Counted from the stretch's first letter, positions 2,777 to 57,511 are shown. The stretch is 64,000 bases of DNA from Candidatus Hydrogenedentota bacterium (GCA_963668025.2 CAXXTH010000023.1:96001-160000), one strand, 5' to 3'. The notes: generated by a model not told the origin, from the letters alone. A program made the numbers and translations.

Positions 2777-2804
2777 CTTTGCGCTTTTGCGCCTTTGCGT
2801 GAAA
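2777..2804. repeat. Orphan arm of a periodic hairpin element (3 x 8 nt)
   Basis: CTTTGCGC TTTTGCGC CTTTGCGT GAAA between convergent genes. Confidence 0.55.
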
Positions 2805-2845
2805 ACGGAACGGGCTGGAACTATTCGCTACGTAGATGGTTCCGC

Positions 2846-3856
2846 CTATTCCGTGTCCGCATGCGCCTTCGCGACGACCTGGCGCAACGCTTCGAGCCGT
2901 TCCTCCGCTTTTGCAAGTGGATGATCGAGAACCTGCCGCCACATACGATTGAGGGTGGGGAGTCCATTTTGTTGTTCCTTAGCCCACTCGTCTGCAAACG
3001 CTCCATTACATATTTCTTGCATAGATTTGTCGGCGGCATCGAGCAACGCCTGCGGGGCCATGCGGCTGCTTCTGGTAAGTTGCCCGTATTGGCTCGTGTG
3101 TGAGTGCAGCTTCAATTGTTTGAAGAATCCTTCCGTGATCATGGCGCGGGCTATCTCAAGGAACTCACCTGATAAGTGTAATTCGGTGGCCACGATCTCC
3201 GGATCGCATCCTTGCTCGACAAGCTTTTCGAAGTAGAGCATGCACAAGGCGTTGATTCCTGGCCAAAGCATCTGTTCCGCATAAAGGTCGATTACCGTTT
3301 CTTCTCGAAACGACGACGCAAAAGCGCCTAGCTGGGTTGCCCCGATAGCTTTCGCGACGGCAAGCCCGGTTGCGAGCGCGTTGCCCGTCGCGTCTTGTTC
3401 AACACCCAATAGGCAGGGATAGCCTAGACCTTTTTGAAATAGGCTGCGAACCGCTTTGCCGATCATGCGAGGCGCGACGAGGATTACATCCACAAAATTC
3501 GGCGGCATCACTTGTTTGTAGTGGATGTTGTAGCCACTGGCGAAACACAACACCTTGCCATGCGCCAATCCATGTTTAACATCCGTCTCGAATACATGCG
3601 GCTGAATCTCGTCTGGGATAAGCATTAATATGATATCGCCGGTTCGGGATGCATCGGCAATACTCTGCACCGTGAATCCATCTTGAATGGACTGCTCCTT
3701 GTATGCATCCTCTCTGTTTCCGATCACCACATTGACGCCGCTGTCCCGCATGTTGAGTGCTTGAGCGCGGCCCTGGTTTCCGTAGCCAATGATACCCACG
3801 GTTTTGTTCTTGAGCGTATCGAGATTGGCGTCGCAGTCGTGGTAGATTTTAGACAT
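2846..3856 (-). CDS. ilvC: Ketol-acid reductoisomerase (class I)
   Basis: MSKIYHDCDANL..KTVGIIGYGNQGRAQALNMRDSG, MLIPDEIQ, ILVAPR, DLYAEQ, SHTSQYG. Confidence 0.9.
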   Translation of the reverse strand: MSKIYHDCDANLDTLKNKTVGIIGYGNQGRAQALNMRDSGVNVVIGNREDAYKEQSIQDGFTVQSIADASRTGDIILMLIPDEIQPHVFETDVKHGLAHGKVLCFASGYNIHYKQVMPPNFVDVILVAPRMIGKAVRSLFQKGLGYPCLLGVEQDATGNALATGLAVAKAIGATQLGAFASSFREETVIDLYAEQMLWPGINALCMLYFEKLVEQGCDPEIVATELHLSGEFLEIARAMITEGFFKQLKLHSHTSQYGQLTRSSRMAPQALLDAADKSMQEICNGAFADEWAKEQQNGLPTLNRMWRQVLDHPLAKAEERLEALRQVVAKAHADTE

Positions 3857-4157
3857 GACCTCAGCTCCTCCATCCTCCAAGTTTGGCCGCAAAGTGCGGC
3901 GTTTCCCGACATCCTATATCCAGATGGAAATCCCGGCGTGATTTGAGTATCTGATATGCATGCATCAGCCCGCAATCCTAAAGTCTCGCATGATTTCGCT
4001 AAACGGCCTTTTCTGAGAAGTCATGCCTGCTTACGCATCGAACAAACATGCGACGGCGTCAGTCTGGTTGCCGTAATATCTTTTGGAACACCCGCTCGTT
4101 TAGCATACATTATCATGAATTGAGAAACGGCGATGCGTTACCCATAGGAAGACAGAG

Positions 4158-5063
4158 ATGATGATAGCAGGCAATGGAATACGGCCGGGCGTATATCCGG
4201 TTCTTTTTACTCCGTTCACGGAGTCAGGTGAGATTGATTACCCGGCCCTGGATGAATTAGCGGATTTTTATATAAGCAGTGGCGTGGGTGGCCTGTTCGC
4301 GGTGTGCTTGTCAGGAGACATGTTCCATCTTACCCAGGAGGAACGCCTAGCGGTGAGCCGCCACCTGATCGAGCGGGCCGGTGAGAGGATGAGTATCGTA
4401 TGTGGAGGAAACTTCACGGGAGGACTCGATAATCAAGCGGCGGAACTCGAAGCCATGCACCATACGGGTGTTGACGCTGCCGTAGTGATTCTCTCGGTAT
4501 TGCCATCGAGGAGAGATCTTAGTGAACAATTGCTGCGCCTCTGCGGCCTGACGAAAGCCCCGCTAGGTCTTTATGAGTGTCCAGCGCCCGAGCATCGCCT
4601 CATGACTCCCGAGGAAATAGCCCGTGTCGCATCCACGGGCCGATTCGTGTTTATGAAAGAAACCTCTCCCACGCCCGAGCCGACCGTTGAAAAGACTCGG
4701 AAAACAGTAGGAACTCCGCTGGGCATGTATCCAGCCCGGTTGAAGAGCACACCCCAAGCGTTGGCCGCCGGTGCGGCAGGCTATTGTGGCGTCATGGCGA
4801 ATATCGCACCAGAATTATGCATGGTCATGTGCGACACCAACCGTACGGACGAAGAACGTAAACGGGCGTATGATGCACTTGTTGAACTACACGATGTCAT
4901 GGAAGCCCACCATTATCCGATCTCGGGCAAGTACATCCTGCAGCGGCGGGGATTACATCTCACCCTGAAATGCCGCGGCGCCGCCGCAAAAATCTTCACG
5001 GCATCGGACCGGGAAGCCCTCGATCGGTTTCTAGAAGGTTTCTGTTTTGATATACATAACTAG
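4158..5063 (+). CDS. Dihydrodipicolinate synthase / N-acetylneuraminate lyase family aldolase
   Basis: GVYPVLFTPFTESGEIDY, LYECP, Schiff-base Lys in FMKETS; CLSGD replaces GTTGE, so probably not true DapA. Confidence 0.85.
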   Translation: MMIAGNGIRPGVYPVLFTPFTESGEIDYPALDELADFYISSGVGGLFAVCLSGDMFHLTQEERLAVSRHLIERAGERMSIVCGGNFTGGLDNQAAELEAMHHTGVDAAVVILSVLPSRRDLSEQLLRLCGLTKAPLGLYECPAPEHRLMTPEEIARVASTGRFVFMKETSPTPEPTVEKTRKTVGTPLGMYPARLKSTPQALAAGAAGYCGVMANIAPELCMVMCDTNRTDEERKRAYDALVELHDVMEAHHYPISGKYILQRRGLHLTLKCRGAAAKIFTASDREALDRFLEGFCFDIHN

Positions 5064-5310
5064 ATATCTAATTCTAATTAGTTCTACGCGCCGCCTCTTG
5101 TTTTTTATTCCCCCATGCCTTGCATGTTCAGGACTCGCCAGCGGGAAAGGGCTTAGGTTCCACCCCTTAGGATATGAATTCAGGATATCTGATTTCGGGT
5201 GATTTAAGTTGAAAAAATGGCTATTATGAGGTACGGTATATCAAATACGGATTGGTGCTATGGCGCGCTGGAAATAAGCTGGTGCGGCAACTAAAGGGAA
5301 ATCCCTGATT

Positions 5311-5622
5311 ATGGCCTCGCTGATTGAGAATGTGCTGATGCTGGAAGGACAGGCCGATGAGGTCGTCTTGCACGCCCGCGCGGAAGCGGAGCGCGTGATG
5401 CAGCAGGCTCGCGAAGAAGCGGCAGCCGGACGGCAGCAAGTGCAAACCGAACTTGAAGCGCGCATGGGTGTTTTCGAGCAGCAAGCCCAGCTTCGCCATG
5501 AAGCCGAACTCGCTTCGGCGCAACAGGAGCTCAAGCAAGCGCTTCAACGTACGGATGAAATACAGCCCGCGGTGATTGATGCGCAGATAGGCCGCATTGT
5601 GGCCCGGTTCCGCGAGTGCTAA
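5311..5622 (+). CDS. V/A-type ATPase peripheral stalk subunit G/H
   Basis: 103-aa Ala/Glu/Gln coiled-coil protein; first gene of the V-ATPase operon. Confidence 0.75.
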   Translation: MASLIENVLMLEGQADEVVLHARAEAERVMQQAREEAAAGRQQVQTELEARMGVFEQQAQLRHEAELASAQQELKQALQRTDEIQPAVIDAQIGRIVARFREC

Positions 5623-5625
5623 GCC

Positions 5626-7696: not shown

Positions 7697-7749
7697 TACT
7701 ATATAGTAACGAACAATTCGCACAAGACACGGAACGGAGGAACACGACC

Positions 7750-8286: not shown

Positions 8287-8299
8287 GGGAATCCAGGCC

Positions 8300-8890: not shown

Positions 8891-8905
8891 GCCGGGGGCG
8901 TAACC

Positions 8906-10214: not shown

Positions 10215-10236
10215 GCAACAACAAGGGCCCATAAAC

Positions 10237-11997
10237 ATGGACGGTAGTCAAGGTCAAGTGGTGAAAGTGTCCGGACCCCTCGTGGTGGCGCGGGGGCTTG
10301 CGGGTGCCCGCATGTACGAAATGGTCCGTGTGGGTGAAGCGCGCCTGTTCGGTGAAATCATCGAGATCCGGGGAGATGAGTACTCGATCCAGGTCTACGA
10401 GGAGACCGAAGGCATCGGCCCAGGCCAGCCCGTCTGGCGGACGGGCGAGCCGTTGAGCGTCGAGCTCGGGCCGGGCCTGATCCGTTCGATCTATGACGGC
10501 GTGCAGCGGCCGCTGGACGCTTTGGCGCGTGATTTTGGCGATTTCATCGAGCGTGGCGCGGCGCGTCCGGCGCTTGATCGCACCGCCCAATGGGAGTTTA
10601 TCCCATGCGTCAAAACCGGCGATACGGTTTCGCCTGGCGATGTGCTGGGAACCGTTCAAGAAAGCAAGATCGTCGTCCATAAAATCATGGTTCCCGCGGA
10701 AAAAGGCGGAACGGTCACCCGTATTGCGCCAGTCACGGGAAATGTGGAGACGGAAGTCGCGGTGCTTGAAACTTCCTCGGGGCCGCTATCGCTCACGATG
10801 GTGCAGCGCTGGCCCGTACGACTTTCACGCCCTGTACGCCGGAAATTGCCGCCGACCGAGTTCCTCACCACCGGCCAGCGGGTAATTGATATGTTCTTCC
10901 CGCTCACGAAGGGCGGCACGGCGTGTGTTCCCGGCCCCTTCGGCAGCGGAAAGACGGTCGTTCAGCATCAGCTCGCCAAATGGGCGGATGCGCAGATTAT
11001 TGTATATGTAGGCTGCGGCGAGCGCGGCAATGAAATGACCGACGTGCTCATGGAATTCCCGCACCTCAAAGATCCCCAGTCGGGCGAACCCCTCATGGAG
11101 CGCACCGTACTGGTGGCGAATACCTCAAACATGCCGGTGGCCGCGCGCGAAGCGAGCGTGTTTACGGGCATTTGCATCGCGGAATACTTCCGCGACATGG
11201 GCTACTCGGTGGCGTTGATGGCCGACTCGACCAGCCGCTGGGCGGAAGCCATGCGCGAGATCTCGGGCCGCCTCGAGGAAATGCCCGGCGAAGAAGGCTA
11301 TCCTGCCTATCTAGGTTCGCGTATCGCCAGTTTCTATGAACGTTCCGGTTCCGTCGTGTGCCTGGGTTCCGAAGAGCGTAAAGGCTCGCTTTCTCTTATC
11401 GGCGCGGTGTCGCCTCCGGGTGGCGACCTATCGGAGCCCGTCGTGCAGGCGACGTTGCGCGTGGTGAAAGTGTTCTGGGGCTTGGATGCCAATTTGGCCT
11501 TCGCGCGCCATTTCCCGGCCATCAATTGGCTCACTTCATACAGCTTATATCAAGAAACCGTGGATGCGCGCGCCAATGAAACCGTCGATCCAAAATGGTC
11601 CAGCGTACGCCTGCGGGCCATGGGGCTCCTCCAGCGTGAAGCCGAACTGGATGAACTGGTCCGGTTGGTTGGCATGGACGCGCTGGCCCATGAAGACCGC
11701 CTCTTGATGCAGGCCGCTAAGATGATTCGTGAAGACTTTCTGCATCAGAACGCCTTCGACGAGCGCGATACCTATACGTCGCACCCGAAGCAATTCCGCA
11801 TGTTATCGCTGATTTTGCATTATTTCGACGCCGTGCGCCCAGCGCTTCAAGAAGGTGTGACGCTTCATCACTTGCTAAACCTAAACGAGCTGGAAGCTAT
11901 CGCCAAAGCGAAGTTGATCCCTGAAGACGGCCTAGAGCAATTCGCGGCGATTGAGCAGCGCATCACGGAATCCATCGCGGCGCTGCCCAGATCGTAA
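10237..11997 (+). CDS. atpA: V/A-type ATPase catalytic subunit A
   Basis: Walker A GPFGSGKT, GCGERGNEM, PGEEGYPAYL. Confidence 0.97.
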   Translation: MDGSQGQVVKVSGPLVVARGLAGARMYEMVRVGEARLFGEIIEIRGDEYSIQVYEETEGIGPGQPVWRTGEPLSVELGPGLIRSIYDGVQRPLDALARDFGDFIERGAARPALDRTAQWEFIPCVKTGDTVSPGDVLGTVQESKIVVHKIMVPAEKGGTVTRIAPVTGNVETEVAVLETSSGPLSLTMVQRWPVRLSRPVRRKLPPTEFLTTGQRVIDMFFPLTKGGTACVPGPFGSGKTVVQHQLAKWADAQIIVYVGCGERGNEMTDVLMEFPHLKDPQSGEPLMERTVLVANTSNMPVAAREASVFTGICIAEYFRDMGYSVALMADSTSRWAEAMREISGRLEEMPGEEGYPAYLGSRIASFYERSGSVVCLGSEERKGSLSLIGAVSPPGGDLSEPVVQATLRVVKVFWGLDANLAFARHFPAINWLTSYSLYQETVDARANETVDPKWSSVRLRAMGLLQREAELDELVRLVGMDALAHEDRLLMQAAKMIREDFLHQNAFDERDTYTSHPKQFRMLSLILHYFDAVRPALQEGVTLHHLLNLNELEAIAKAKLIPEDGLEQFAAIEQRITESIAALPRS

Positions 11998-12011
11998 AAA
12001 AAAAGGCTTGC

Positions 12012-12353
12012 ATGAAAACACTCGAAGAAACAGCGGTAATCTCTGATTCAGATCGAGCGCTTCTGCATGAAGTGAAAAACGTTATCCAGCAGAAGCTTCC
12101 AAATGCCACTGTGTTTTTGTATGGGAGCGTGGCCCGGGGAGATCGACGGCCAGAATCGGATTACGATCTCCTCATATTAACGGACGAATCACTTAAATAT
12201 GACCAAAAAGACACCGTACAAGAGGTGGTATATTATTTTGAGCTAGAGCACAATGTGGTGCTTTCGACCGTTTTTTTTACAAAGGCGCACTGGTTTGAAC
12301 ATCCGCAACTGCCTTTGCATGTATCGATTGAGCGTGATGGCGTGCAATTGTGA
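12012..12353 (+). CDS. Minimal nucleotidyltransferase (MNT), putative antitoxin
   Basis: LYGSVARGDRRPESDYDL (GS-x10-DxD); overlaps the HEPN gene start (GTGA). Confidence 0.88.
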   Translation: MKTLEETAVISDSDRALLHEVKNVIQQKLPNATVFLYGSVARGDRRPESDYDLLILTDESLKYDQKDTVQEVVYYFELEHNVVLSTVFFTKAHWFEHPQLPLHVSIERDGVQL

Positions 12354-12748
12354 ATGAGGAAATTCAGACTTATATCCAATATCGTATGCAGATGGCGGCG
12401 GAAGCGCTGGCCATGGGCGAAGAAGGCATCAAAAAGGGCTTTCTTCACAGTGCGGTCAATCGCTTGTATTATGCTTGCTTTTATATGGTGACTGCGTTAT
12501 TGCTTATTGAAAACATGCAGGCATCAAAACACAGTGGAGTAGAAGCCCTTTTTAACCGGCATTGGATTGCCACAGGCCGTTTGCCTGTGGCTTTAGGCAA
12601 GCACTTTAGCTTGATGATGAAACGCCGGCATCAAAGCGATTATGTGGATATGATGGACTTGGAGCCTGAACAAGTAGCAAACTGGCAAGCCGATACGAAA
12701 CGTTTTATCGAAACATTACGAGATGAGATTTCAGGCCATTTGCGGTAG
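12350..12748 (+). CDS. HEPN domain protein, putative toxin/partner of MNT
   Basis: SAVNRLYYACF, SKHSGV, RHQSDY (R-x4-Y type HEPN). Confidence 0.88.
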   Translation: MNEEIQTYIQYRMQMAAEALAMGEEGIKKGFLHSAVNRLYYACFYMVTALLLIENMQASKHSGVEALFNRHWIATGRLPVALGKHFSLMMKRRHQSDYVDMMDLEPEQVANWQADTKRFIETLRDEISGHLR

Positions 12749-12853: not shown

Positions 12854-14236
12854 ATGGCGACAGTGATGAAAGAATACCGGACCGTACGGCAGATCATCGG
12901 GCCTTTGATGCTCGTTGAAGGCGTCGAAGGAGTCACCTACGGCGAACTGACGGATATCGCCTTGGACGACGGCACGGTGCGCCGCGGGCGTGTACTCGAG
13001 GTCAACGGCGATAAGGCCATGGTGCAGGTTTTCGAAGGCACGAGCGGCCTCGCCCTTCGGGATATTAAGGTCAAGTTTCTAGGAAAAGGCATTGAGCTTG
13101 GTGTTTCTAGTGACCTTCTCGGCCGTGTGTTCGACGGATTCGGCCGTCCCATCGACGACGGCCCGGCCATCATCCCGGAGAAATATCTCAATATCAACGG
13201 CAATCCCATGAATCCCTTCGCGCGGGATTATCCGAACGAGTTCATCCAGACAGGCATATCGACCATCGATTTGCTGAACACGCTCGTGCGTGGCCAGAAA
13301 TTGCCTATTTTCTCGGCGTCCGGCCTTCCGCATTCGCGCATCGCCGCCCAAATCGCCCGGCAGGCGTCCGTGCTTAAAACGGGCGAAAAGTTCGCCGTGA
13401 TTTTCGCCGCCATGGGCATCACGTTCGAGGAAGCGGAGTTCTTCATCGCCGACTTCCGCCGTACAGGCGCCATCGAGCGCTCGGTGCTCTTCATGAATCT
13501 CGCCGATGATCCGCCCACGGAACGTATCGCGGTCCCGCGCATGGCCCTCACCGCCGCCGAATACCTGGCATATGAAAAAGGCATGCACGTGCTCGTGATC
13601 ATGACGGACTTGACCAACTACTGCGAGGCGTTGCGCGAGATTTCGGCTGCACGCAAAGAGGTGCCTGGCCGGCGCGGATATCCCGGTTATTTGTACACCG
13701 ACCTTTCAACCCTCTACGAACGTGCGGGGCGCATTAAAGGCCGTGAAGGCTCTATCACCCAGATCCCCGTGCTGACCATGCCGGAAGACGACAAAACGCA
13801 TCCGATCCCGGACCTTACGGGTTACATCACCGAGGGGCAGATCATCATCAACCGCAGCCTTCACGCCCAAGGCATCTATCCGCCCGTGGACGTGCTCCCG
13901 TCGCTGTCACGCCTCAAGGACAAGGGTATTGGCAAGGGCAAGACACGCGAAGACCACGCGGATGTCATGAACCAGCTTTATTCCGCTTATGCCCGTGGTA
14001 AAAACTCGAAAGAGCTGGCCGTGGTGCTGGGAGAATCGGCCCTGAGTGAAGCGGATCTATTGTTCGTAAAATTCGCCGACGCCTTCGAGGACCGCTTCGT
14101 CCGGCAAGGCGAAAACGAGAATCGTACAATAGAAGAGAGCTTGGCGATCTCCTGGGAGTTGCTGGCGATGCTGCCTCGAGGCGAACTCAAGCGCATCCGG
14201 GATGAATATATCGAGAAGTATTTGCCGAAGAAGTAA
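12854..14236 (+). CDS. atpB: V/A-type ATPase subunit B
   Basis: [49 protein letters not shown]; GAGGT RBS. Confidence 0.97.
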
Positions 14237-14490
14237 TGGACATACTACTTCATCCACATGCTATAGAGCGGGCGCATGAACGCGGAGCTACGGTGGAGGA
14301 GATTGAGTTAACCGTCAAAAATGGTGAACAATTCCCTGCTAAATTTGGGCGGGTGGCTTTTCACCACACCTTTGGGTGTAATAATTTTTGGAAAGGAAAG
14401 TGGTATAATTTTAAGCAAGTGGAAGCGATAGCAGTCGAGTCTGAGCAGGGTTGGTTAGTTTTGACGGTAATAGTCCGTTTCCATTTGTGA
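14236..14490 (+). CDS. DUF4258-like (RelE/BrnT-fold) putative toxin
   Basis: HPHAIERAHERGATVEEI; start overlaps the atpB stop (TAATG); lower GC. Confidence 0.7.
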   Translation: MDILLHPHAIERAHERGATVEEIELTVKNGEQFPAKFGRVAFHHTFGCNNFWKGKWYNFKQVEAIAVESEQGWLVLTVIVRFHL

Positions 14491-14498
14491 GGCAAGCC

Positions 14499-14738
14499 AT
14501 GCGACTAACATATGATCCAACAGCCAACATCGCCTATATCCGGTTTCGCGAAGCCGAGGTTGAAATCGAAACCCTTCATATTAGCGATGAGTTGAATGTG
14601 GATATAGCGCCTGATGGCGAAGTATATGGCATAGAATTGTTGAACGCAAACGCACAGCTAGGCGGAAAAGGTCTTCCGAAAGTGGTGTTTGAAAACGCAC
14701 TTTCTGGCGGAGTCACTGAAATGAAGCTGCCTAGTTGA
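14499..14738 (+). CDS. DUF2283 family protein, putative antitoxin
   Basis: MRLTYDPTANIAYIRF...LNVDIAPDGEVYGIELLNA. Confidence 0.85.
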   Translation: MRLTYDPTANIAYIRFREAEVEIETLHISDELNVDIAPDGEVYGIELLNANAQLGGKGLPKVVFENALSGGVTEMKLPS

Positions 14739-14780
14739 CAGTAATAAGCCTTTTCAAGTAAGGCGATAGGAAACGCAACG

Positions 14781-16804: not shown

Positions 16805-16995
16805 AATAAACCTCTTGTTAATCGATTTTGGTTCCGCAGGATGCAATAAGGCGTGATGATACCGTAAATGCATTGGGCTCTTCCAGGGAAAATACGATAA
16901 AATACATGATAAAGACGAAGACAGGAAACCTGTTTTGATAACGGCATTGAAACGCATGGTGCGTCATGGCCGCAACCAAAGATCTGGATTATAGA

Positions 16996-17049
16996 GCACT
17001 AAATACACTAAATACACTAAAATTTAGATGACATAAAATTTAGATAACT
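16996..17049. repeat. Degenerate periodic hairpin element (3 x 9 nt left arm)
   Basis: GCACTAAAT ACACTAAAT ACACTAAAA followed by two TTTAGAT units. Confidence 0.5.
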
Positions 17050-17491
17050 AGGGTGGAGCTTGCCCCACCGTTCAAAGGATTCATCGACCAAAATGCTATG
17101 TAAAAACCGGTAACATTTTAGCCGATTGAAGTAGCATCTGATCTTTGGCAGCCTTGTTTATTGCCTTGGACCGGTGTTGATGGATCATTCCGCATATGAC
17201 GACTGACGCCCTCGCCGGTCATTCTTCACCACTTGGCTAAATTGTTACGAATTTTTCAATGTAATTGCCTGTACGGACGCCTAGCTAATCTGAGAATATC
17301 TCTCTATAATACCCACCAGATTTTTGGCGATTGGCCCACCATCGTGTCCATTCGTGATTTACAAAGACAAAACGATTCCAGTTGGCATTAACGAGTCAAA
17401 TCCCAGTCAGGACGCATTGTGCGTTTGAATGAATTCATGCCGCATTAAGTTACCGAGTATTTTTCTTGATGGCGGCTAGAGGAGCCTAAGG

Positions 17492-27762: not shown

Positions 27763-27851
27763 GATACCTCGAATTCATGCTAACTGGACGGACGCTTGCT
27801 CGCTCCGCCTCATTGTAACACGTTATATGAAGCGTATCATGCCTGCAAACG

Positions 27852-27905
27852 CCCGTAGCATGGCCGTCCCGGCCATGCGCATGGGCGGGACGCCCATGCT
27901 ACGGG
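27852..27905. repeat. REP-like (GTAG-type) inverted doublet
   Basis: CCCGTAGCATGGCCGTCCCGGCCATG-CG-CATGGGCGGGACGCCCATGCTACGGG; second copy at 36132-36203. Confidence 0.85.
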
Positions 27906-28058
27906 AATTGTGTGGCATAGGCTTTTTCTCTTCTCCGCGATTCGTAATGCTTTAGCCGAGTGGTGAAGAATGACCGGCGAGGGCGCCGGTCGCTATATAG
28001 AATATCGATACCGGTGCAAGGCAATAAACAAAACTCGATAGACACAATCCTTCAAGAA

Positions 28059-29883: not shown

Positions 29884-30178
29884 GGATCGACTCCTTCTGA
29901 TATACATATCCTTCCACAAGGCATGATTCCACCCTTGATGGATAGACAGCTTCGAATGAGGAATGATAATACGCTTAGTCCTTAAGGATCAATCGAGACA
30001 CATCCATTCCAGCGGTGAAGAATAGCGGCGCCCCAGGGTCAGGCGTTGAGGTGATGCGGGTTAGACGGGGGGTGGCGAGGCCGACAGGCGACAGGAGGGG
30101 CAGCGGCTGTGCGTAAAGCCGGTGAATGGATGGGCGAGACGTGTAGGGCGGCGGCGCAACCGGGAACGCGCGGGCGCC

Positions 30179-31615
30179 CTATGCGGAACTGAAGCGGATC
30201 TGGATGGCCTCGGTGCAGAGGGCGTCATATTGTTCGCGGGACAGGGTGGCGTTGCGCAGGGCTTCGAGGAGGCGATGGGCAAGGTTTCTGGCGGAGCCAA
30301 AGCCTTTTGGAAAGTGGGCGGCCAGAAGGCTGCCATCCTCCAGGAGTTGCATGAGCAGATGGGCTATCTGCATCAAGAGGTAGTAGATCTTGCTGGCCTG
30401 TTCGTTTTGGGTATAGGCGTGTTCGAGGTTGTAGCCGCCGTTTTTCTGCACGTTGAATGCTTCATTTTCAATCTTCCAGCGTAAGCGTCCTCCTTCATTG
30501 GCCAAGGCGGCCGCATTGTGCGCGGATACGGATACGTTGGTCACCCATTTGAACTTGGTTTTCTTTATCATGCCTTCCGCGTCCGGGCGGGTGTCCACGC
30601 ATTCGAGCACGGACAGGATGTGTTCACGCCGCTCGGAATCGCGGTAGGGGATGTCGTTGACCCAGCGAAACTGCTGGTGGATTTCCTTCTTGTTGCCGCA
30701 ACGCCACGTAAGCTGGTTTTCGGGCGTCGCGGCCGCGAGGCTCTCGAATTCTTCGTTCACGGTGGCCAATTGGCCGTCCGTGAGCGTAATCATGAACTTC
30801 CAGCCATATTGCTGGCACAGCCGAAACACCGGTCCCGTGGCGTACAGGCCGTCCATCGCCAACAGCAGCGGCAAGCGGGGGAATCGGGCATGCAGGCGTG
30901 GGGCCAGCCGGTAGAAGGCTTTGGTCTCGCAATCCTGCTTGCGTTGTTGCTCGCTTTTCGCCAGGTCTTTCTCTGGATTCTCAATGAACTCCGTCATGAG
31001 CGAAAAGACCCACCCGTTTGGCGTGACGATCTTGGACTCCAGCACGGGATGGTAGTAGGTGATCTTGCCGCTCTTGTGCTTGCGCGTGAGGCAATGGGCG
31101 CAGTGGCGATGATCATAACTGCGTGTCCCCGTGGCGTCGATGGCCGCCACGTAGTAGCGCCCGAACAGGCGGTGGGGGTACAACACCTTCTTGTCGATGA
31201 GCGTCTGCGTCATGCCGGAAACGAGTTCCTGGACCGCCTCGAACGGCAAACCGCGAAATACCCCGTTCATCGTATCGCCATGCGGCACGCTGTCCACGTC
31301 AAACAAGACCTTGTACAGATGGACCATGAACGTCGTGTACAACTGCAGGCGGACTTGCCGGCGCGCCCCGAGCCGGCATGCGAACATCAGCACTCCCAAG
31401 AACACCAGCGACGCGACACTGTAGTCCACGTCGCCGGCTTGCTCGGGTTTGCGGGGATCGGGCAAGCCCGCAAAGCGCTTGCGCACCGGGCCAAAGAAGT
31501 GGGTGAACGTCCTCAAGAAGGCCCGGATGATTTCCGGATGCTCTTCTTGCGGGTTTGCAGGAACTGCCGTTGGGCCGCGCCCATGGCCTCGACGAGCTTC
31601 TTGAGCTTTTTCCAT
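30179..31615 (-). CDS. DDE transposase (IS4-like/ISNCY-like; family not firmly assigned)
   Basis: AAIDATG, LAMDGLY, RLRWKIENEAFNVQK; HCAHC insertion. Confidence 0.9.
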   Translation of the reverse strand: MEKAQEARRGHGRGPTAVPANPQEEHPEIIRAFLRTFTHFFGPVRKRFAGLPDPRKPEQAGDVDYSVASLVFLGVLMFACRLGARRQVRLQLYTTFMVHLYKVLFDVDSVPHGDTMNGVFRGLPFEAVQELVSGMTQTLIDKKVLYPHRLFGRYYVAAIDATGTRSYDHRHCAHCLTRKHKSGKITYYHPVLESKIVTPNGWVFSLMTEFIENPEKDLAKSEQQRKQDCETKAFYRLAPRLHARFPRLPLLLAMDGLYATGPVFRLCQQYGWKFMITLTDGQLATVNEEFESLAAATPENQLTWRCGNKKEIHQQFRWVNDIPYRDSERREHILSVLECVDTRPDAEGMIKKTKFKWVTNVSVSAHNAAALANEGGRLRWKIENEAFNVQKNGGYNLEHAYTQNEQASKIYYLLMQIAHLLMQLLEDGSLLAAHFPKGFGSARNLAHRLLEALRNATLSREQYDALCTEAIQIRFSSA

Positions 31616-31860
31616 TCCTCAATCCATTGCGCCACTTCGCGGCGCAATTCACGGGGCACGTGGAGGGTGCGGGTCTTCCCGCCCTCCTTCCACGTCAGCA
31701 GGGCCGTTTCATGGATCGGCCCTTCCTGGACGCACCGGCAGCGCGGGTTCCCGCAGCGGCTGCGGGTGATGGTGAGCGTGGCGGGAAGAAAGGGCCCCAG
31801 ACGCGCCAGGCGCGCCTGGACCTTGCGTCCCGCCGAGTTCGTGACAGGTTTCCCTTCCAT
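31513..31860 (-). CDS. DUF6788-like Cys/His-rich IS accessory protein
   Basis: SRCGNPRCRCVQEGPIH...WKEGGKTRTLHVP; overlaps the transposase ORF by 103 nt. Confidence 0.75.
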   Translation of the reverse strand: MEGKPVTNSAGRKVQARLARLGPFLPATLTITRSRCGNPRCRCVQEGPIHETALLTWKEGGKTRTLHVPRELRREVAQWIEEWKKLKKLVEAMGAAQRQFLQTRKKSIRKSSGPS

Positions 31861-31886
31861 GTACGGAAGTATATATACTTCCGTAC
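31861..31886. promoter_or_regulatory. Perfect 26-bp palindrome abutting the accessory ORF start (candidate operator)
   Basis: GTACGGAAGTATATATACTTCCGTAC; same in copy 2 at 63580-63605. Confidence 0.6.
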
Positions 31887-32002
31887 CAGAAGTCAACAAA
31901 AAAAAGCGCCGATGCGAAGAAAAAACTCCCCGCACCGGCGCATCCTCAACTCATTCAACTGCTTCTACGCGAAAAAAAAGCGGTTCTTCACCGCTGAATC
32001 GT

Positions 32003-32729: not shown

Positions 32730-32804
32730 GAATGAGCCACAAAAGACGTAAAAGATACAAAAATGAATTGTTCTTGCGTCTTTTGCGCCTCTTGAGGCTA
32801 ATTC
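32730..32804. repeat. Periodic hairpin element (3 x 9 nt arms)
   Basis: GAATGAG CCACAAAAG ACGTAAAAG ATACAAAAA ... TTCTTGCGT CTTTTGCGC CTCTTGAGG CTAATTC. Confidence 0.75.
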
Positions 32805-36131: not shown

Positions 36132-36203
36132 CGTAGCATGGGCGTCCCGCCCATGAAAAATGTGCTAGAGCCAATGTTTCATGGGCGGGACGCCCATGCT
36201 ACG
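36132..36203. repeat. REP-like (GTAG-type) inverted doublet
   Basis: CGTAGCATGGGCGTCCCGCCCATG...CATGGGCGGGACGCCCATGCTACG directly after the ATPase stop codon. Confidence 0.85.
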
Positions 36204-40322: not shown

Positions 40323-40337
40323 GTCATTTGTTTATAC

Positions 40338-40563: not shown

Positions 40564-40624
40564 CACTCAATACCTCACTCAATACCCCCAAACCCAAGAC
40601 CCTAAACCCAAGACCCTAAACCCT
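40564..40624. repeat. Short tandem repeats (2 x 12 nt, then 5 x 7 nt)
   Basis: CACTCAATACC(T/C) x2; AAACCCA AGACCCT AAACCCA AGACCCT AAACCCT. Confidence 0.7.
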
Positions 40625-40694
40625 ATTTGCACCTCATGGCCATCCTTTGGCAATATAGCCGTTCATTGGATGAGAAAGAAAATGGAGAAGTTTC

Positions 40695-43319: not shown

Positions 43320-43351
43320 CACAAAAATAGAGGCGTCTCGCCTGTGCCTTT

Positions 43352-43500
43352 TTTTAGACATGATTTACAAGATGAACAAGATTTTTTAGATTGGATTTAT
43401 TATGCGAAAGAATCCATGTCTAAAATAAAGAAAACAATGTATGAACTAATGAGAATGCTATGAAAAATCGTTGCTATCATCTTGTAAATCATGCCCAAAA
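43352..43500. repeat. Hairpin element A flanking the GxxExxY gene
   Basis: TTTTA GACATGATT TACAAGATG AACAAGATT ... CATCTTGTA AATCATGCC CAAAA; diverged direct repeat of 43916-44076. Confidence 0.85.
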
Positions 43501-43518
43501 AAGTAGGGATGCGGAACG

Positions 43519-43905
43519 ATGGAAGTAAACGAATTGACCAAGCTGGTTATTGGTTCCGCCTACACGGTCCATAATGTTCTGGGTTCCGGTTTTTTAGAGA
43601 AAGTGTACGAAAATGCGCTGTTGATCGAGTTGTTGGAGATAGGGTTGTCGGCGAAGCAGCAGGCAGAAATACCGGTTTACTATCGAGGGAAGAACGTAGG
43701 AGATTTTGTGGCGGATCTGATTGTTGAGGATAGGCTTATTATCGAGTTGAAAGCCGTGCAATCCCTTGCCAAAGAGCATGAAGTCCAACTAGTCAATTAT
43801 CTGAACGCGACGGAAATAGAGAATGGGTTGCTCATTAATTTTGGATCTTCCGTCACGGTGAAACGAAAATTCCGCCGATATGAATCCGCGGAAGATATTC
43901 TATAA
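43519..43905 (+). CDS. GxxExxY protein (PD-(D/E)XK-like putative nuclease)
   Basis: GSGFLEKVY, ADLIVEDRLIIELKAV, QLVNYL, GLLINFG. Confidence 0.93.
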   Translation: MEVNELTKLVIGSAYTVHNVLGSGFLEKVYENALLIELLEIGLSAKQQAEIPVYYRGKNVGDFVADLIVEDRLIIELKAVQSLAKEHEVQLVNYLNATEIENGLLINFGSSVTVKRKFRRYESAEDIL

Positions 43906-43915
43906 GGTGCTGTTT

Positions 43916-44076
43916 TTTTAGACATGATATACAAGATGGACAAGATTTTTATTGATTGGGTTTACAATAGAAATAAATGAATGACATAAATAAAACACAT
44001 GAGAATGAGTGAACTTATGAGAATGCTATTAAAAATCTTCGTTATCATCTTGTAAATCTTGTTAATCATGTCTAAA
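43916..44076. repeat. Hairpin element B flanking the GxxExxY gene
   Basis: TTTTA GACATGATA TACAAGATG GACAAGATT ... CATCTTGTA AATCTTGTT AATCATGTC TAAA. Confidence 0.85.
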
Positions 44077-44112
44077 TAAAGCATGTGGGGAAACAACATC
44101 AGGATACGCTTT

Positions 44113-46491: not shown

Positions 46492-46632
46492 CACCGTTGG
46501 GAAGGATTTGATCCGCCATTCGAGGTTTTCTGCACGCTCGGCGGGGAAAGCCGATGTTTTTTCCGCTTACAAATGCGTGAACCTCGATTTCAAGTCATGT
46601 ACAATGACGTGGGCGTTGCCCACAACCAAAGA

Positions 46633-46793
46633 TCCGGATATTTCACCACGAGATACGAAGGACACGAAGTTTTTCTGTAGATGCTGCTCACAATATCATG
46701 GGCTGAATACCGTTTCGAGAGGCAGCCATTGGTTATGATCATACCGTTTTCTGCTTCGTGTTCTTCGTGCTCTTCGTGGTGAAGCTATCCGGA
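46633..46793. repeat. Periodic hairpin element (3 x ~9 nt arms)
   Basis: TCCGGATA TTTCACCACGAGATACGAAGGACACGAAG ... CTTCGTGTT CTTCGTGCT CTTCGTGGTGAA GC TATCCGGA. Confidence 0.8.
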
Positions 46794-46853
46794 AATTCTG
46801 ACCACAAATATACACAGCGCAGTAGAGCCGTAACCAAAGTGCTTCACTTTTTT

Positions 46854-46882
46854 ACCGCGAATGGACGCGAATGAACGCGAAT
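46854..46882. repeat. Orphan arm of a periodic element (3 x ~10 nt)
   Basis: ACCGCGAAT GGACGCGAAT GAACGCGAAT. Confidence 0.6.
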
Positions 46883-47118
46883 ATGTTCTCTGACTTGGGT
46901 TTTGGCCACAATGTAGTATTTGTCGCAGTTTTATCAGTTCCGTCACCAAGGCTAAGCTATTGATTTTAGGAGAATTACAGTCTGCAGGCACTATTGGCGC
47001 CGCAACTTCTTGTTGTTCTTTGCAGCTTCTAAGTTTTAAGGTACTGATATACATGAAATGGAGCAATATTGCTCCTAATGGCGTTGGACTCCTAAAAAAT
47101 AGACTCGCGGGATATCAC

Positions 47119-54000: not shown

Positions 54001-56206
54001 CGGTGAAGGTAATGGCAATGTTGAAAACAGCGCCATCCGGCATAGTGATTGGGGCAAGGATTTAACTGAATTTCAGATTAATTGGCCGCATGCGAAAGAC
54101 AATCTGGTAGGCGATCCGTGCTTTGTGGACCGGGAGAATGGAGACTATCATCTGGCCTCCGGCAGCGCCGCCGTGGGCATGGGCGCGCTGGACGCCGGTC
54201 CCGCCGTGGATTTTGATGACCAGCCGCGTCCTGGCAACGATGGCTTGGCGGATCTGGGCGTGTTCGAGTCCGATGGACTCACTCCGCTCACGGATTCGAC
54301 TCCGCCCACGGGGCGCGTTTATAACATCACCATAGGCACGGAAACGATTTCCACGTCTTACTCGTGGCCGATTGATGGTATCCTCCGATTAGTAGCGCGT
54401 GCGCAATCCGATGATATTGCCCTGTATTGGGGCGGAGCGGACAATCAAAGCAGTATCACGCAAGCGGAGATTTATTATCGCGCCTACAATGGCGAATGGC
54501 AGTCGCTTGGGTCCTACGACAGCAGTCCAGTCCACATACCGCCGTCCATTTTCTCGGAAGATAATCTGTACGAATTCATGGCTCTGTGTACGGACTCCGC
54601 CGGGAATAAGGAGCCAATGGATGGCCTTGCGGAATTGCAGTTCTTGTGGAGCCAGAGCCCGCTTGCCTCGCCGCTGTATGTGAACATCCAATCGACGGGT
54701 GCGCAGCGAGGCGATGGGTGGGGTGCCGCGTTCCAGTCCATTCGTGATGCTTCCATCGTTGCCTATTATCAAGTACAAAAATATGGCGTTCAGCCCTTCG
54801 ATATATGGGTGGCGTCCGGCGAGTATCATGAGGCGGCTAGTTTCGGATATGATTATGTAGAGAATCTGTATGGCAGCTTCGCCGGAACAGAATCTTCTCT
54901 GGATGAGCGCGTTTCCACGAATCCCTCAACAGTTATGACGATTACAGATATACCTTGGTACAATAGTTACACATATGCACTTTTGTATTGTGGCAGCCAT
55001 GGAATTGTCGATGGCTTTGTTTTAAGAGACAGCCCCATAGACGGCCTAACAGGATCTTGCAGTGCCATACGAAACTGCGTGATAGAAAGCAGCGCGGGTG
55101 ATGGCATGTATTTCGAGCGCTATTATTCGCGCACGACTCCTCCCGGCAGTTTGCCCGCCATTGAGCATTGCGTGATTCAGAATAACCGAAGCAACGGGAT
55201 CGATGTGGAGCTTATTCAATCTTACGAAGATTGGGAAAAGGGTTCCGTAACAAAAGGCGATTCGCCTGGCCTCGATCAAAGCAATGCCAAGGGAATCCTG
55301 CAACTGCAAATTCGAGACAGTTCTTTGAAAGGAAATGGGAGCGTGGCAATTGATCTAAGCAACAAGGTCATCGCCACGAACTGCGTCATCTCGGGCAACA
55401 GAAAAGGCATATCGGCGGGCTGGGTTGAATTGTACAACTGCACCGTGGATGGAAACGGTCATGTGTTGAGCGAGCCAGGGGTGAATGGCGTGGACTCGGA
55501 GATTTTCCACATCAGGAACTCCATCATTTCGAGAACCACGGGATGCGCACTGCAAGGGACACCTTCTAGCTCGACATTGTCCTCCACGCTGTTCTATGGA
55601 AATGAGGACGGCGATTTCAGAGATCCTGCAGGCAACATCTATTTCGGCGCGGAGGCCATTGAAGGCGCTATTCCCGGCGTGATCGGCATCCTAGATGTGG
55701 ATCCCTTATTCGTTGACGCAGGAGCGGAAAATTATCATCTACTGGAGCAGTCGCCAGCGATTGATGCGGGCATCGCCGAAGGTGCGCCGGATGTGGATAT
55801 CGAAGGCACGCATCGGCCGCAAGGGGATGGCTGGGATTTGGGCGCGTATGAGTATGTGCCGAAGGGAACGGATGACCGGGATGGCGATGGATTGACCAAC
55901 GATCAGGAAACCGCGCTGGGCACAAATCCTCGCTTGAAGGATACGGATGGCGATGGCGTATCCGATTTGGATGAAATCGGGTGGGATGGCGATCTCTCAA
56001 GCTATACGCCAGGTATGGATACCGATCCTTTGAATCGAGATACGGATGGCGATGGCCTAACCGACGATATTGAGCGGGATATCGGTTTGAATCCGCTGGA
56101 TCCCAGCGATGCGGCGAGTGTTGTGCCTGCGGCTTCGTGTCTGTTGACGTTTATCGGGTTGTCGGCCGTAATGCTCCTGTTATGGATGCGGCGGCGCTCC
56201 GCTTAG
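51089..56206 (+). CDS. Large surface protein: three beta-helix (pectin-lyase-like) modules, choice-of-anchor Q-like segments, DxDGDG repeats and C-terminal TM anchor
   Basis: GGGAGG RBS; signal peptide; YVN..G.DG.SW..A...(E/D)(V/I)W(V/I)A.G.Y x3; SPAID.G...D.GA(Y/F)E x3; DTDGDG repeats; C-terminus VPAASCLLTFIGLSAVMLLLWMRRRSA. Confidence 0.85.
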   Translation: MHMQTVRALSILILLSASLPSAAAVWYVNQANTSGTHDGASWATALSTIQAGVLAAGAAGGGEVWVAQGEYIEYVTLQSNVSLLGGFSGNENSAESRNFKQNVTAIRAEKHSREILSRLLAENIQAFCVDGFFLKGANPSTEKASGLRSKDSEGIIRNCRFEGIGGSSAIGCMDTSIIIQKCDFTNNRYDYSAGGVISLFRGTATIEDCNIWGNKKLDTGMLDFVALTVDMKRCRIYENSAIAIMSPTRMENCLIANNYVTFSAPQTSIRNCTFLQNAPKYTRGITFGASGIIVQNSIVWFGMTEFDQFFWNNLASGTRALYWDSPAYQPTLTNCLFYHQIHDGENVISLPLAGVADLVYNNVRELELSFSTCKDNIDADPLFAESSSMNKPLSNGSPAIDRGDPALAPEDDLLGNARPGDDGLVDIGAYESESAYIPPMDVLPPTSEIRNAPLSTKETIFGIDWYGYDPDGKLKDAALYYRKDGGAWQIYASGAFTESPIQFDISTTGGAGIYEFYIKATDMAGHVEETPTTAEWTTAVWPSDFTVDRLYVNMAAPAGGDGLSWETAMNSVGPALSSFDAGQGGEVWIAKGDYAAMTVAIPAGVHVALYGGFMGNETDLSQRNVENNPVVLRSLGPSEVLSASGWQSQGSIVLDGLTLNSTTGGISFEGVASVHIAKCLFTGCGNGTSQYAGGGRIEDCASVEITDTRFVENFGYNGGGLYLKNCSAAFRRCFFDNNWASQDNMALYAENCILGFVDSHFASGNLDPTNRIEYVIAYTSGQIQARNCVMDGGKGGWEAAATTGTSLFEGCTFRGIDSSRGGLRASKTGSAGFQITECTFDGNQCGLYSYNGVVETSKCLFKNNGIGGFGGKYDSCVFQNNLNIGCLYGKATNCIAEQNGTYGFYSTDSSYCTSVANGIAGFYAYYANDRITNCISAYNEQAAFGVHPSSSSDEPIIAITKCLLYGNPMAAGEGNGNVENSAIRHSDWGKDLTEFQINWPHAKDNLVGDPCFVDRENGDYHLASGSAAVGMGALDAGPAVDFDDQPRPGNDGLADLGVFESDGLTPLTDSTPPTGRVYNITIGTETISTSYSWPIDGILRLVARAQSDDIALYWGGADNQSSITQAEIYYRAYNGEWQSLGSYDSSPVHIPPSIFSEDNLYEFMALCTDSAGNKEPMDGLAELQFLWSQSPLASPLYVNIQSTGAQRGDGWGAAFQSIRDASIVAYYQVQKYGVQPFDIWVASGEYHEAASFGYDYVENLYGSFAGTESSLDERVSTNPSTVMTITDIPWYNSYTYALLYCGSHGIVDGFVLRDSPIDGLTGSCSAIRNCVIESSAGDGMYFERYYSRTTPPGSLPAIEHCVIQNNRSNGIDVELIQSYEDWEKGSVTKGDSPGLDQSNAKGILQLQIRDSSLKGNGSVAIDLSNKVIATNCVISGNRKGISAGWVELYNCTVDGNGHVLSEPGVNGVDSEIFHIRNSIISRTTGCALQGTPSSSTLSSTLFYGNEDGDFRDPAGNIYFGAEAIEGAIPGVIGILDVDPLFVDAGAENYHLLEQSPAIDAGIAEGAPDVDIEGTHRPQGDGWDLGAYEYVPKGTDDRDGDGLTNDQETALGTNPRLKDTDGDGVSDLDEIGWDGDLSSYTPGMDTDPLNRDTDGDGLTDDIERDIGLNPLDPSDAASVVPAASCLLTFIGLSAVMLLLWMRRRSA

Positions 56207-57288
56207 AGGTGGAAATCGCCTGCGGCTTCAGGCTGGTAGAGAAGCGCTTTCACCAAATACCGGCGAGGAAGCGGGTTCGCGTTGGTCTCGACGATGTCAT
56301 TAATGCGGCTTCCGAGGAGCCGTGTGCCTAAGGGCGACAATATCGAGATATTTTCCTTTTTAGAAGCGGCGTCGCGTGGGAACACGAGCCGGCAGGTTTC
56401 TTCCATACCTGTATCTGCGTTTTGCAATTGCACGACGGAATGCATGGTAATAAGGTCACCTGGCACTTCGTGAGGGCTGACGACTTTCGCACTTGCCAAG
56501 CGTATTTCTAGTTCTTGCAGAAAAGCGCGCGTCTTTTCGTTTCCAAAATCATGGGCCACATGGATCAACTCGCGGAGCCGTTCTAAGTCAAACCGGCTGA
56601 TATGGATAGAGCGTTCCATAGCCTCGCCGGCCTTTTCCGCGGGAATGGCCCCTATCGTTTGAAGGGTCACGGGGCTCAAGTGCATATGTACGATATGGCG
56701 CGCGATGTCGTCCAGCGAGCCCGATTGGCCAGGCCGCTCCCAATAAGCCATGAACACCTGGATGGCCGCTTCCAGGCTCAAAGTTAGGTGCAGCGGCACG
56801 ACTCCAATAAGGCGTTTACGTTCGATCACCCGCCGGAAAAGCCCTTCTATAAGATGCACATATTCCCGGTAGAGCGCTTCCACATGATGCGGCAAACTGC
56901 TCGGATCGGGCAGCACCCCAGCATGGCCTTCCGCTGAAAATGCTTGAAAGAACAGCCGGTCCTTGGTGAAGTTGTATAGCCGCAGCTTGACGGCTTCCCC
57001 CATGGCTTGCTCCGGATCCATTCCCTGGCTGGCGGCTTGCTTGGTCCGGCGCAATACGGCAATCCCGATCCGGGCGATCACCTCCGCATAAATCCCCTCT
57101 TTATCGCGAAACAGGTTATATAGCGTTCCCACGGAATACCCGGATTCCCGGGCAATATCGTCCGTGGTGGTTAAGAAATACCCACGCGTCGTAAACAGCT
57201 TGTCGGCGGCATCAAGAATGACTTCCCGTTTGAGGGCCTTGTCTTTTTCCCGGCGTGAACCATTGTCGTGTAGGGAAATAGAATGCAT
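56203..57288 (-). CDS. TetR-family regulator fused to an Rnk (GreA/GreB-like) domain
   Basis: N-terminal ILDAADKLF..RGY..TTTDDIARESGYSVGTLYNLFRDKE; C-terminal ISRFDLERL...VPGDLITMHS...LVFP...ISILSPLG..LLG...YQPEAAGD. Confidence 0.9.
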   Translation of the reverse strand: MHSISLHDNGSRREKDKALKREVILDAADKLFTTRGYFLTTTDDIARESGYSVGTLYNLFRDKEGIYAEVIARIGIAVLRRTKQAASQGMDPEQAMGEAVKLRLYNFTKDRLFFQAFSAEGHAGVLPDPSSLPHHVEALYREYVHLIEGLFRRVIERKRLIGVVPLHLTLSLEAAIQVFMAYWERPGQSGSLDDIARHIVHMHLSPVTLQTIGAIPAEKAGEAMERSIHISRFDLERLRELIHVAHDFGNEKTRAFLQELEIRLASAKVVSPHEVPGDLITMHSVVQLQNADTGMEETCRLVFPRDAASKKENISILSPLGTRLLGSRINDIVETNANPLPRRYLVKALLYQPEAAGDFHL

Positions 57289-57306
57289 GCCTGGGCCTCC
57301 TTGGCG

Positions 57307-57367
57307 TGAGCGAACACTCAGTTTATGAATATATACTCATCCTAAGCTTTAGGCATTCGCGTGTCAA
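57307..57367 (-). promoter_or_regulatory. Sigma70-type promoter with two candidate TetR operators
   Basis: TTGACA (57367-57362)-17 bp-TAGGAT (57344-57339); TGAG-N6-CTCA at 57307-57320 and TGAA-N6-CTCA at 57326-57339. Confidence 0.65.
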
Positions 57368-57438
57368 TTTTTTATATAGGATGAGACTGGGGCCCGAGAG
57401 GGAGATTATCATTACTAGTAACGTGAATTTTGGAGAGC

Positions 57439-57511
57439 CTCTTTGTGTCTTCATGGCTTTGTGGTGAATTTTTCCGGAGCTTTCACCATGAAGTCACGAA
57501 GACGCAAAGAG
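57439..57511. repeat. Periodic hairpin element (8-nt units, arms back to back)
   Basis: CTCTTTGTGTCTTCATGGCTTTGTGGTGAA ... TTCACCATGAAGTCACGAAGACGCAAAGAG; 30-bp stem with 5 mismatches. Confidence 0.8.

Follow-up and report, generated by a model that had tools for sequence, protein, structure and literature searches.

What gives rise to gene-less, three-unit repeats at several gene junctions of a genome in which the same design also encloses a small gene? The question is posed by a 64,000-nucleotide stretch from a Candidatus Hydrogenedentota bacterium (GCA_963668025.2, CAXXTH010000023.1:96001-160000), referred to in full as the window. It holds one gene of the GxxExxY family, which lies between hairpins whose arms consist of about three tandem units of 8 to 10 nt, and six further intergenic sites carry triple-unit arms and no gene. 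The initial annotation took these six sites for scars or non-autonomous derivatives of the gene's own cassette system. To place them, we compared the window with GxxExxY loci from other genomes.

Triple-unit sites in the window

Arms were typed by their unit: A, ACADGAT (mostly with a 9-nt period); B, CRCDGAT; C, CRCRGAG; and D, CRCNAAD. The comparison set (L numbers below) was built on 80 GTDB loci among the matches listed, of 598 matched stretches, with flanks of about 1.0 Mb; no close relative of the window's genome was among the matches listed for these 80 loci. The six sites are as follows, with folding z scores for the sequence treated as RNA.

2775..2804, minus strand: single triple-unit arm with 8-nt units, type D, in the gap between convergent genes, starting 5 nt past a stop codon; 24 of 29 positions identical to the upstream arm of L007
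16996..17049, plus strand: triple-unit arm with 9-nt units (16996-17022) and a degenerate partner arm, from the detector and folding
32730..32804, no strand assigned: gene-less full hairpin with inward arms of 9-nt units, in a divergent intergenic region; z -5.4/-8.0
46633..46793, no strand assigned: gene-less full hairpin with 9-nt units, type D, TCCGGA at both ends, loop without a GxxExxY remnant; z -8.1 (plus) and -7.0 (minus)
46854..46882, plus strand: single triple-unit arm with 10-nt units, type D, from the detector; the 10-nt type is also gene-less in L028 and L089
57439..57511, no strand assigned: two back-to-back arms with 8-nt units and one shared TCCGGA, in the form of a tandem or circle junction; z -8.1/-6.7

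Each site was read back from the sequence, and all six triple-unit stretches are confirmed. A motif-free detector (three 7-mers spaced 8 to 11 nt apart, summed mismatches of at most 2), run over the whole 64 kb, returned seven arms, every one of them intergenic: the sites at 2775, 16996, 46753 and 46855, together with three arms flanking the GxxExxY gene. When 30 intergenic stretches drawn by hand (6,607 nt in all) were dinucleotide-shuffled 300 times, the mean was 0.04 arms and the maximum 1, and seven were reached in none of the 300, so the frequency lies far above that of shuffled intergenic DNA. The sites at 32730 and 57439 were detected only at 4 mismatches, where nine intergenic arms compare with a shuffled mean of 0.55 and a maximum of 3. 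Because this setting also yields 14 further matches outside the hand-drawn intergenic stretches, the case for these two sites rests on their folding. A common unit pattern, written post hoc from the sites, matched 10 three-unit arms in intergenic DNA (shuffled mean, 0.49; maximum, 4) and added no triple-unit site to those in the window; two-unit arms (17, versus a mean of 9.9 and a maximum of 19) showed no excess over chance.

The proposed design of an arm plus its reverse-complement partner held for the full hairpins, with z scores of -5 to -8, and held less well at 16996, where one good arm faces a degenerate partner (-3.8 kcal/mol). The region 46815-46920 folded no better than chance. At 2777 the three units, in a small correction, read CTTTGCGC, TTTTGCGC, and CTTTGCGT. 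More than architecture is common to the sites. On the purine strand they have the unit grammar C-R-C-N-A-A-D in common, and three of them share a 15-nt outer junction (at 16978, at 46628 and, on the minus strand, at 57469; the pattern was built from these sites). TCCGGA borders the 46633 hairpin on either side, where, being palindromic, it is indistinguishable from the stem, so no target-site duplication can be read there; 57439 has its single shared copy. A broad GxxExxY profile, with stops read as X, found no remnant in the window besides the intact gene, the loops of the six sites included. The window contained no tRNA or tmRNA, and blastn of 46600-46930 and 57420-57530 against plasmids gave chance-level matches only (E 0.9-4), one of which led to L089 and its gene-less 10-nt arms.

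The window's GxxExxY gene and its counterparts

The window's only GxxExxY gene is inserted between alaS and ruvX as a cassette with a whole hairpin on each side.

43348..43502, plus strand: left hairpin with 9-nt units of type A, repeated directly, along with its loop, in the right hairpin
43519..43905, plus strand: GxxExxY gene (PF13366/TIGR04256), 128 aa, predicted PD-(D/E)XK fold
43913..44081, plus strand: right hairpin, ending 1 nt before the predicted ruvX start (44083)

The predicted structure of the protein (predicted local distance difference test score, 92) has a PD-(D/E)XK fold, and its top Foldseek matches were Cas4 SSO0001 (E 4e-5, Z 8.2, root-mean-square deviation 4.0, 101 residues aligned), an alkaline exonuclease and Hjc. 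Since several unrelated PD-(D/E)XK families tied in VIA-align (Z 8.0-8.6), assignment to a RecB/Cas4-like subfamily rests on motifs. Residues E27, D66, E76, K78, Q90 and Y94 are retained in 87 to 89 of 89 proteins, and we take them to be the RecB/Cas4-type set E..D..ExK..QxxxY. The protein thus appears to be a RecB/Cas4-like nuclease with intact catalytic motifs, and nuclease activity is predicted. With 10,316 clusters at 50% identity (E up to 1e-10), the family is large; P0002 is a relative at 89% identity. Three plasmid queries retrieved the same eight records each, and tblastn against phages found two records of one halovirus with a partial match, which gives no sign of phage carriage. In the portions of the literature accessible to us, PDDEXK_3 is described as of unknown function with multiple transfers, flanking or dispersed repeats not being mentioned there (PMC3424549); GxxExxY receives one mention, unrelated to repeats, as a protein that resembles Cas4 and lies next to a reverse transcriptase (PMC8934634); and the name also occurs in PMC12085832.

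Arms form a repeat family that is strongly associated with GxxExxY genes in other genomes. Full flanks were available for 73 loci; in 51 of these an arm lies no more than 250 nt from the gene, and in 28 there is one on each side, compared with 60 of 1,197 control windows from the same loci. The co-occurrence that the initial annotation asked to be tested is thus strong. The commonest layout is an inward-facing arm on each side of the gene (26 of 79 genes with full flanks), hairpin-gene-hairpin forms like that of the window being fewer. The eight plasmid genes also have tandem-unit flanks by eye, weakly so in L004 and L005. Insertion points include fabD-fabG, ispF-cysS, uppS-cdsA, a pair of BatA-domain genes and others, and a single protein clade is found at ispF-cysS, uppS-cdsA and other sites. 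In this one clade (L038, L069, L074 and L081 at ispF-cysS, L065 at uppS-cdsA, and L055) the arms enclose the GxxExxY gene along with differing unannotated genes, as if the loop captured cargo.

Unit type follows protein lineage. On a quick tree of 89 proteins (33 labelled A, 27 B, 2 D and 1 C, with 26 unlabelled), all 33 type A proteins fall within a single group of 38 rows, the one to which the window gene belongs. The label A requires 4 changes, compared with 27.0 when shuffled, and a value as low arose in 0 of 500 shuffles. Type B lies in another part of the tree and C/D on a distant branch, and the groups mix many phyla. A comparison for specificity residues separated the A and B lineages cleanly only at position 96 and in the C-terminal tail, a difference to which we attach no meaning. 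Coinheritance of a gene with its flanks would yield the same lineage-type match without specific recognition. The pattern recurs in protein ends that read into the arms, scored in three sets of 120 near relatives: 23 A and 1 D for the window gene, 49 D and 35 C for the L007 gene, and 26 C and 5 D for the second L020 gene, against 0 to 2.4 arm signatures in shuffled tails. Read-through goes further in P0154, P0166, P0167 and P0193, and in L029 and L033, where GxxExxY continues through the right arm into prepilin-type genes to give fusions; arms recur in pilin clusters. Within an element, the left and right arms resemble each other more than same-type arms elsewhere do (A, 21.3 versus 13.1, n = 14, P = 0.005; B, 19.0 versus 9.4, n = 10, P = 0.002), which fits pairing or the copying of one arm from the other.

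This last result bears on one account of the arms, in which they serve as arrays for binding in double-stranded form, with iteron-like units spaced by roughly a helical turn as in the subterminal repeats of transposons; GxxExxY would be a subunit that binds or cuts, and a recombinase or transposase not linked to it would do the joining. Such arrays suit the fixed cores of the three units and their 8- to 10-nt period, the persistence of single arms, and the TCCGGA copies of 46633 and 57439. They do not lead one to expect left and right arms that covary beyond the type consensus, nor back-to-back junctions as rare as we found (4, versus 42 inward pairs). No recombinase is linked to the arms either: 279 candidate open reading frames beside gene-less arms were reduced to 109 by dropping frames nested in long ones, and the 100 examined gave a single weak Y1_Tnp match as their only transposase or recombinase. 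We think this account improbable.

The types also show where the six window sites do not come from. They score 10 to 17 against the best of six C/D gene-flanking arms and 4 to 8 against the window gene's type A arm, a comparison of best-of-six with one that carries no shuffle control. Since the sites are D-like and the only GxxExxY gene in the window is type A, they do not derive from that gene; we presume that they stem from C/D-lineage genes elsewhere in the genome or since lost. Their shared unit grammar and sequence place them, on this comparison, in the family of arms that flank GxxExxY genes. The view of them as non-autonomous kin of the cassette system is supported: of the outcomes that the initial annotation named as refuting it, none occurred. 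The further suggestion that each variant has its own unit stands at the level of lineages, with A, B and C/D in separate parts of the tree and gene-less arms resembling those of their own locus; the six sites are not of the local gene's type.

That mismatch could instead mean that the six sites belong to another family of small genes with tandem-repeat arms, four-helix-bundle genes for example. D-type arms flanking GxxExxY genes are few at the DNA level, and L024 has, between cas genes, a small gene in decay that bears tandem arms of 8-nt units; to judge by its translation, that gene may be of the four-helix-bundle kind. Against this, the 100 open reading frames beside gene-less arms included no four-helix-bundle Pfam match, and D and C arms directly abut GxxExxY genes in L006, L007, L020, L074 and L090, as they do in the protein ends. 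We give this origin very little credence. Both L023 and L024 carry GxxExxY within an apparent cas operon (labels that we assume from the translations), and where L024 has the decayed gene L023 has a 15-nt gap; the decayed gene and its arms suggest a parallel system.

Gene-less copies and their possible spread

Away from the gene, the detector found 117 matches in the roughly 1.0 Mb of flanks, of which 69 were of types A to D and 48 were other; these gene-less arms include the window's 8-, 9- and 10-nt D types. The estimate of about one site per 10 kb applies to this window; elsewhere the 69 typed arms are concentrated near the gene. The 48 untyped matches, and the general richness of intergenic DNA in hairpins, are what could be said for chance microsatellites and terminators, an explanation that we consider next to impossible because the shuffle and association tests refute it, as do folding and the clustering described below.

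Gene-less copies match the local lineage. The 35 loci placed in the A group have gene-less A arms in 11 and B arms in 1; the other 45 have A in 1 and B in 12 (P = 3e-5 versus the A group). Sites cognate to the local gene fall off steeply with distance (P = 7e-10), from 29 in 241 kb (12 per 100 kb) at 0.3 to 2 kb, to 7 in 343 kb (about 2 per 100 kb) at 2 to 5 kb and 6 in 428 kb (1.4 per 100 kb) at 5 to 10 kb. Noncognate sites over the same bins numbered 1, 4 and 2, with no fall-off. The near sites are symmetric about the gene (15 upstream, 14 downstream). Some of the 29 are the far ends of cargo cassettes of the ispF-cysS clade, kept in the count; at others, ordinary host genes intervene before the GxxExxY gene is reached. 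Gene-less copies occupy host operons such as exbB-exbD, moxR-batA and pilin clusters. For gene-less arms more than 600 nt away, the best match was to the arms of the locus's own gene in 11 of 21 loci (P = 2e-4). L090 carries a hairpin-gene-hairpin cassette and, 8 kb off, the same hairpin with no gene.

Filled and empty versions of orthologous junctions also exist in other genomes, as the initial annotation had asked of close relatives. The hisC-hisB junction holds a 188-nt hairpin in L038 and only 7, 24 and 99 nt in L069, L074 and L081; a 374-nt type C cassette in L074 corresponds to a 20-nt gap in L069; and a hairpin in L016 corresponds to a single arm at the same place in L026. Other palindromic repeats are nested in hairpin loops in L016 (4212-4534) and L038 (4090-4250), and alternating tandem clusters of arms resembling bacterial interspersed mosaic elements (BIMEs) occur in L086 (10694-10900), L090 (1685-1810 and 11596-11720) and L013 (14852-15272).

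Our preferred reading, which we hold with modest confidence, is of a selfish nuclease-repeat element that would cut its own arms, be copied locally by repair and lose its gene, leaving remnants like the six sites. The full element would be a small GxxExxY gene between two inverted arms, or between two whole hairpins, placed at a host gene junction, where the arms can pair and the operon stays usable. The RecB/Cas4-like nuclease would recognise the arm or stem of its own type, in DNA that is probably single-stranded or extruded, and cut it. Host repair would then copy or move the hairpin to gene junctions close by, mostly in cis. Solo hairpins, single arms and back-to-back junctions such as that at 57439 would remain where the loop had lost its gene or the two flanking hairpins had recombined with each other.

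The clustering can also be explained by passive spread, in which the arms offer patches of homology to host recombination or to natural transformation, the gene and nearby hairpins are imported on one donor segment, and the nuclease, though it recognises its arms, only restricts incoming DNA, as SsnA does. Co-import accounts for the concentration near the gene, the similarity to the gene's own arms and the variable cargo at ispF-cysS; the mixing of phyla in the protein tree fits as well. In the accessible portion of PMC11893778, the nuclease SsnA modulates transformation, and mobility is not what is shown. Passive spread leaves unexplained how hairpins first appear at empty junctions, and the operons that hold the clusters, upstream as well as downstream of the gene, are ordinary host ones. 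We consider it unlikely, though it is the strongest of the alternatives.

A third possibility places the element at the RNA level: the arms would be stems for mRNA processing or stability, similar to intervening sequences and copied in trans by a reverse transcriptase, with the protein acting on RNA or riding as a passenger. In its favor, 31 of 40 left arms start -9 to +36 nt from the stop of an upstream long open reading frame (a count with no control), near copies lie mostly within co-directional gene runs, and individual hairpins fold better on one strand. The strand was examined by the asymmetry of G.U versus A.C pairs, the strand of gene-less sites being set by a crude reading-frame rule. 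Gene-adjacent hairpins had a sense excess of G.U (17:6), but gene-enclosing (33:23) and gene-less (8:11) hairpins did not. At 57439 the better-folding strand is antisense, window sites lie in divergent and convergent regions, and the clustering is symmetric about the gene. Rfam covariance models gave no gathering-level match in the window and, in the other loci, only a sub-threshold miRNA match in L051 and L081. An RNA-level element seems to us quite improbable, at about the same low level as the binding arrays or a shade above it.

Several observations weigh against the selfish nuclease-repeat element itself. No joining enzyme was found linked to the arms, and PD-(D/E)XK nucleases are not known to carry out strand transfer themselves. 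The sequences show directly that genes and arms go together, that arm type is lineage specific, that left and right arms match, that cognate gene-less copies cluster locally, that sites can be filled or empty and that the catalytic motifs are intact; the nuclease activity, its substrate, its role in causing spread, mobility and the route of gene loss are inferred. No arm was detected beside 20 of the 79 GxxExxY genes; back-to-back junctions, an expected product, are scarce; and no cognate C/D gene for the six sites was seen within the 64-kb window. The filled and empty pairs are too diverged for a target-site duplication or an exact boundary to be defined, the unit of the L038 hisC-hisB hairpin lies outside types A to D, and the near-site count includes the cargo-cassette ends already mentioned. 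Pair asymmetry points to no clear strand. The tree has weak support (82 for the type A group, with 6 of 86 inner branches starred) and carries only two D-type loci and one C-type locus, and the protein-end sets, as near relatives, are not independent.

A bolder form of the same idea is that GxxExxY genes represent a novel kind of minimal mobile element: needing neither a transposase nor a recombinase, a RecB/Cas4-like nuclease of 125 aa would seed its cognate hairpin in cis at one junction after another of the operon in which it sits, and the hairpin loops would serve as landing sites for cargo genes and other repeats. We offer this tentatively, as a conjecture with the odds somewhat against it.

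Neighboring repeats and known systems

A short GC stem-loop with AACCAAAG after it forms a second motif, which adjoins arms at 16969, 46619, 46827 and 46894 in the window. Its copies there are as follows.

16961..16992, plus strand: short GC stem-loop, AACCAAAG and the shared outer junction, directly outside the 16996 arm
46609..46631, plus strand: GC stem-loop with both stem sides changed relative to the other copies, then AACCAAAG
46819..46839, plus strand: degenerate stem-loop, then AACCAAAG
46894..46906, minus strand: degenerate inverted copy that closes the 46854 arm

The stem letters vary between copies on both sides. A structure scan placed the motif at only four positions in other loci, one of them, in L081 (about 11570-11610), inside a cassette by eye; besides these, L051 has a truncated copy (about 12975-12995). 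We therefore rejected it as a general part of the arm family; it may be a repeat in its own right that is used as a target. The window has other repeats too. Paired palindromes at 36132-36203 and 27839-27918 form inverted doublets that look like repetitive extragenic palindromic (REP) sequences or their REPIN doublets and have no relation to the triple-unit arms. Another repeat, roughly 100 nt long, occurs twice, at 17154-17252 (minus strand) and 27940-28031, and contains a stretch resembling the end of a 2-kb insertion sequence (IS) that is present at about 30009-31995 and 61728-63712; this repeat is possibly a target or a miniature derivative of that IS. Upstream of alaS, 40571-40625 holds tandem 7/14-nt units of a heptamer type, distinct from the 8- to 10-nt arms. 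A V/A-type ATPase operon is interrupted by a nucleotidyltransferase-HEPN pair (12012-12748) and a second small gene pair (14237-14750), neither with triple-unit arms.

The closest known counterpart is the Ssn/NTS system (SRM; Chenal et al. 2025, PMC11893778). As described in the accessible portion of that paper, it too pairs a small gene for a single-domain nuclease with hairpin repeats of its own on either flank; repeat and gene covary across phyla, gene-less copies are many, and the association is of similar strength, 71% of Ssn genes being associated with their repeats (compared with 51 of 73 loci here). The enzymes differ, Ssn being GIY-YIG (cd10448) and GxxExxY PD-(D/E)XK (PF13366/TIGR04256). 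The repeats differ as well, judged by their descriptions: NTS is an inverted repeat of 20 to 50 nt, whereas GxxExxY arms form a long stem of three tandem 8- to 10-nt units, often with the gene in the loop. Ssn nucleases cut their own flanking hairpins, a precedent for the reading preferred here; GxxExxY is characterised through its sequences. Operon-wise local clustering of the kind seen around GxxExxY is not reported for Ssn/NTS in that portion of PMC11893778.

REP-associated tyrosine transposases (RAYTs) with their REP, REPIN and BIME repeats (PMC3733652; bioRxiv 10.1101/2021.07.10.451892), as far as these sources were accessible, resemble the arms in forming gene-less extragenic inverted doublets with a variable spacer and tandem clusters (as in L086 and L090), and in having a cognate enzyme flanked by the same repeat. 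Beside GxxExxY arms, however, the gene is GxxExxY and not an HUH/Y1 transposase; the arms lack the GTAG/CGTC tag and consist of direct tandem units instead of short palindromes; and RAYTs are described as single-site and vertically inherited, while GxxExxY genes sit at many sites with phyla mixed. Heptamer tandem repeats (STRR-like, TAACTGA and GGGAATC), in what was accessible of PMC4679880 and PMC4692102, are likewise short intergenic tandem units, sometimes in inverted pairs and patchy across phyla, but have 7-nt units in variable copy number and no nuclease link. We exclude the GxxExxY system from Ssn/NTS and RAYT/REP because the enzyme differs and, for REP, the repeat form also. Miniature inverted-repeat transposable elements of classical DDE insertion sequences carry inverted repeats at their ends, with either a gene or an empty core between them. 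GxxExxY arms share the terminal inverted repeats and the filled and empty sites with these elements; they differ in enclosing a gene that is not a DDE enzyme and in being built from units, and no target-site duplication could be delimited. Elhai is said to have described, in 2008, small dispersed repeats of cyanobacteria with short intergenic units.

We found no published description of these arms in a search mostly of papers available without subscription, supplements such as that of PMC11893778, with its possible related associations, lying outside it; the arm family is thus apparently widespread and undescribed. A nuclease paired with a cognate repeat is a kind already known from Ssn. New here are the different fold, the repeat design and the marked local clustering. 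GxxExxY would be the second nuclease fold, after the GIY-YIG Ssn enzymes, to be paired with its own dispersed repeats, which suggests that the design arose more than once. The arm family also explains a common annotation artefact, in which proteins gain tails derived from the repeats or are fused by read-through. How REP-like repeats originate and spread is a question on which the sharp concentration of cognate copies near the gene has a bearing. For the large, function-unknown GxxExxY family, the lineage-specific hairpin provides a predicted substrate and a direct assay. If the enzymes are arm specific they would be candidate tools, and if the minimal-element idea is true, the family would amount to a natural library of nuclease-repeat pairs with distinct specificities.

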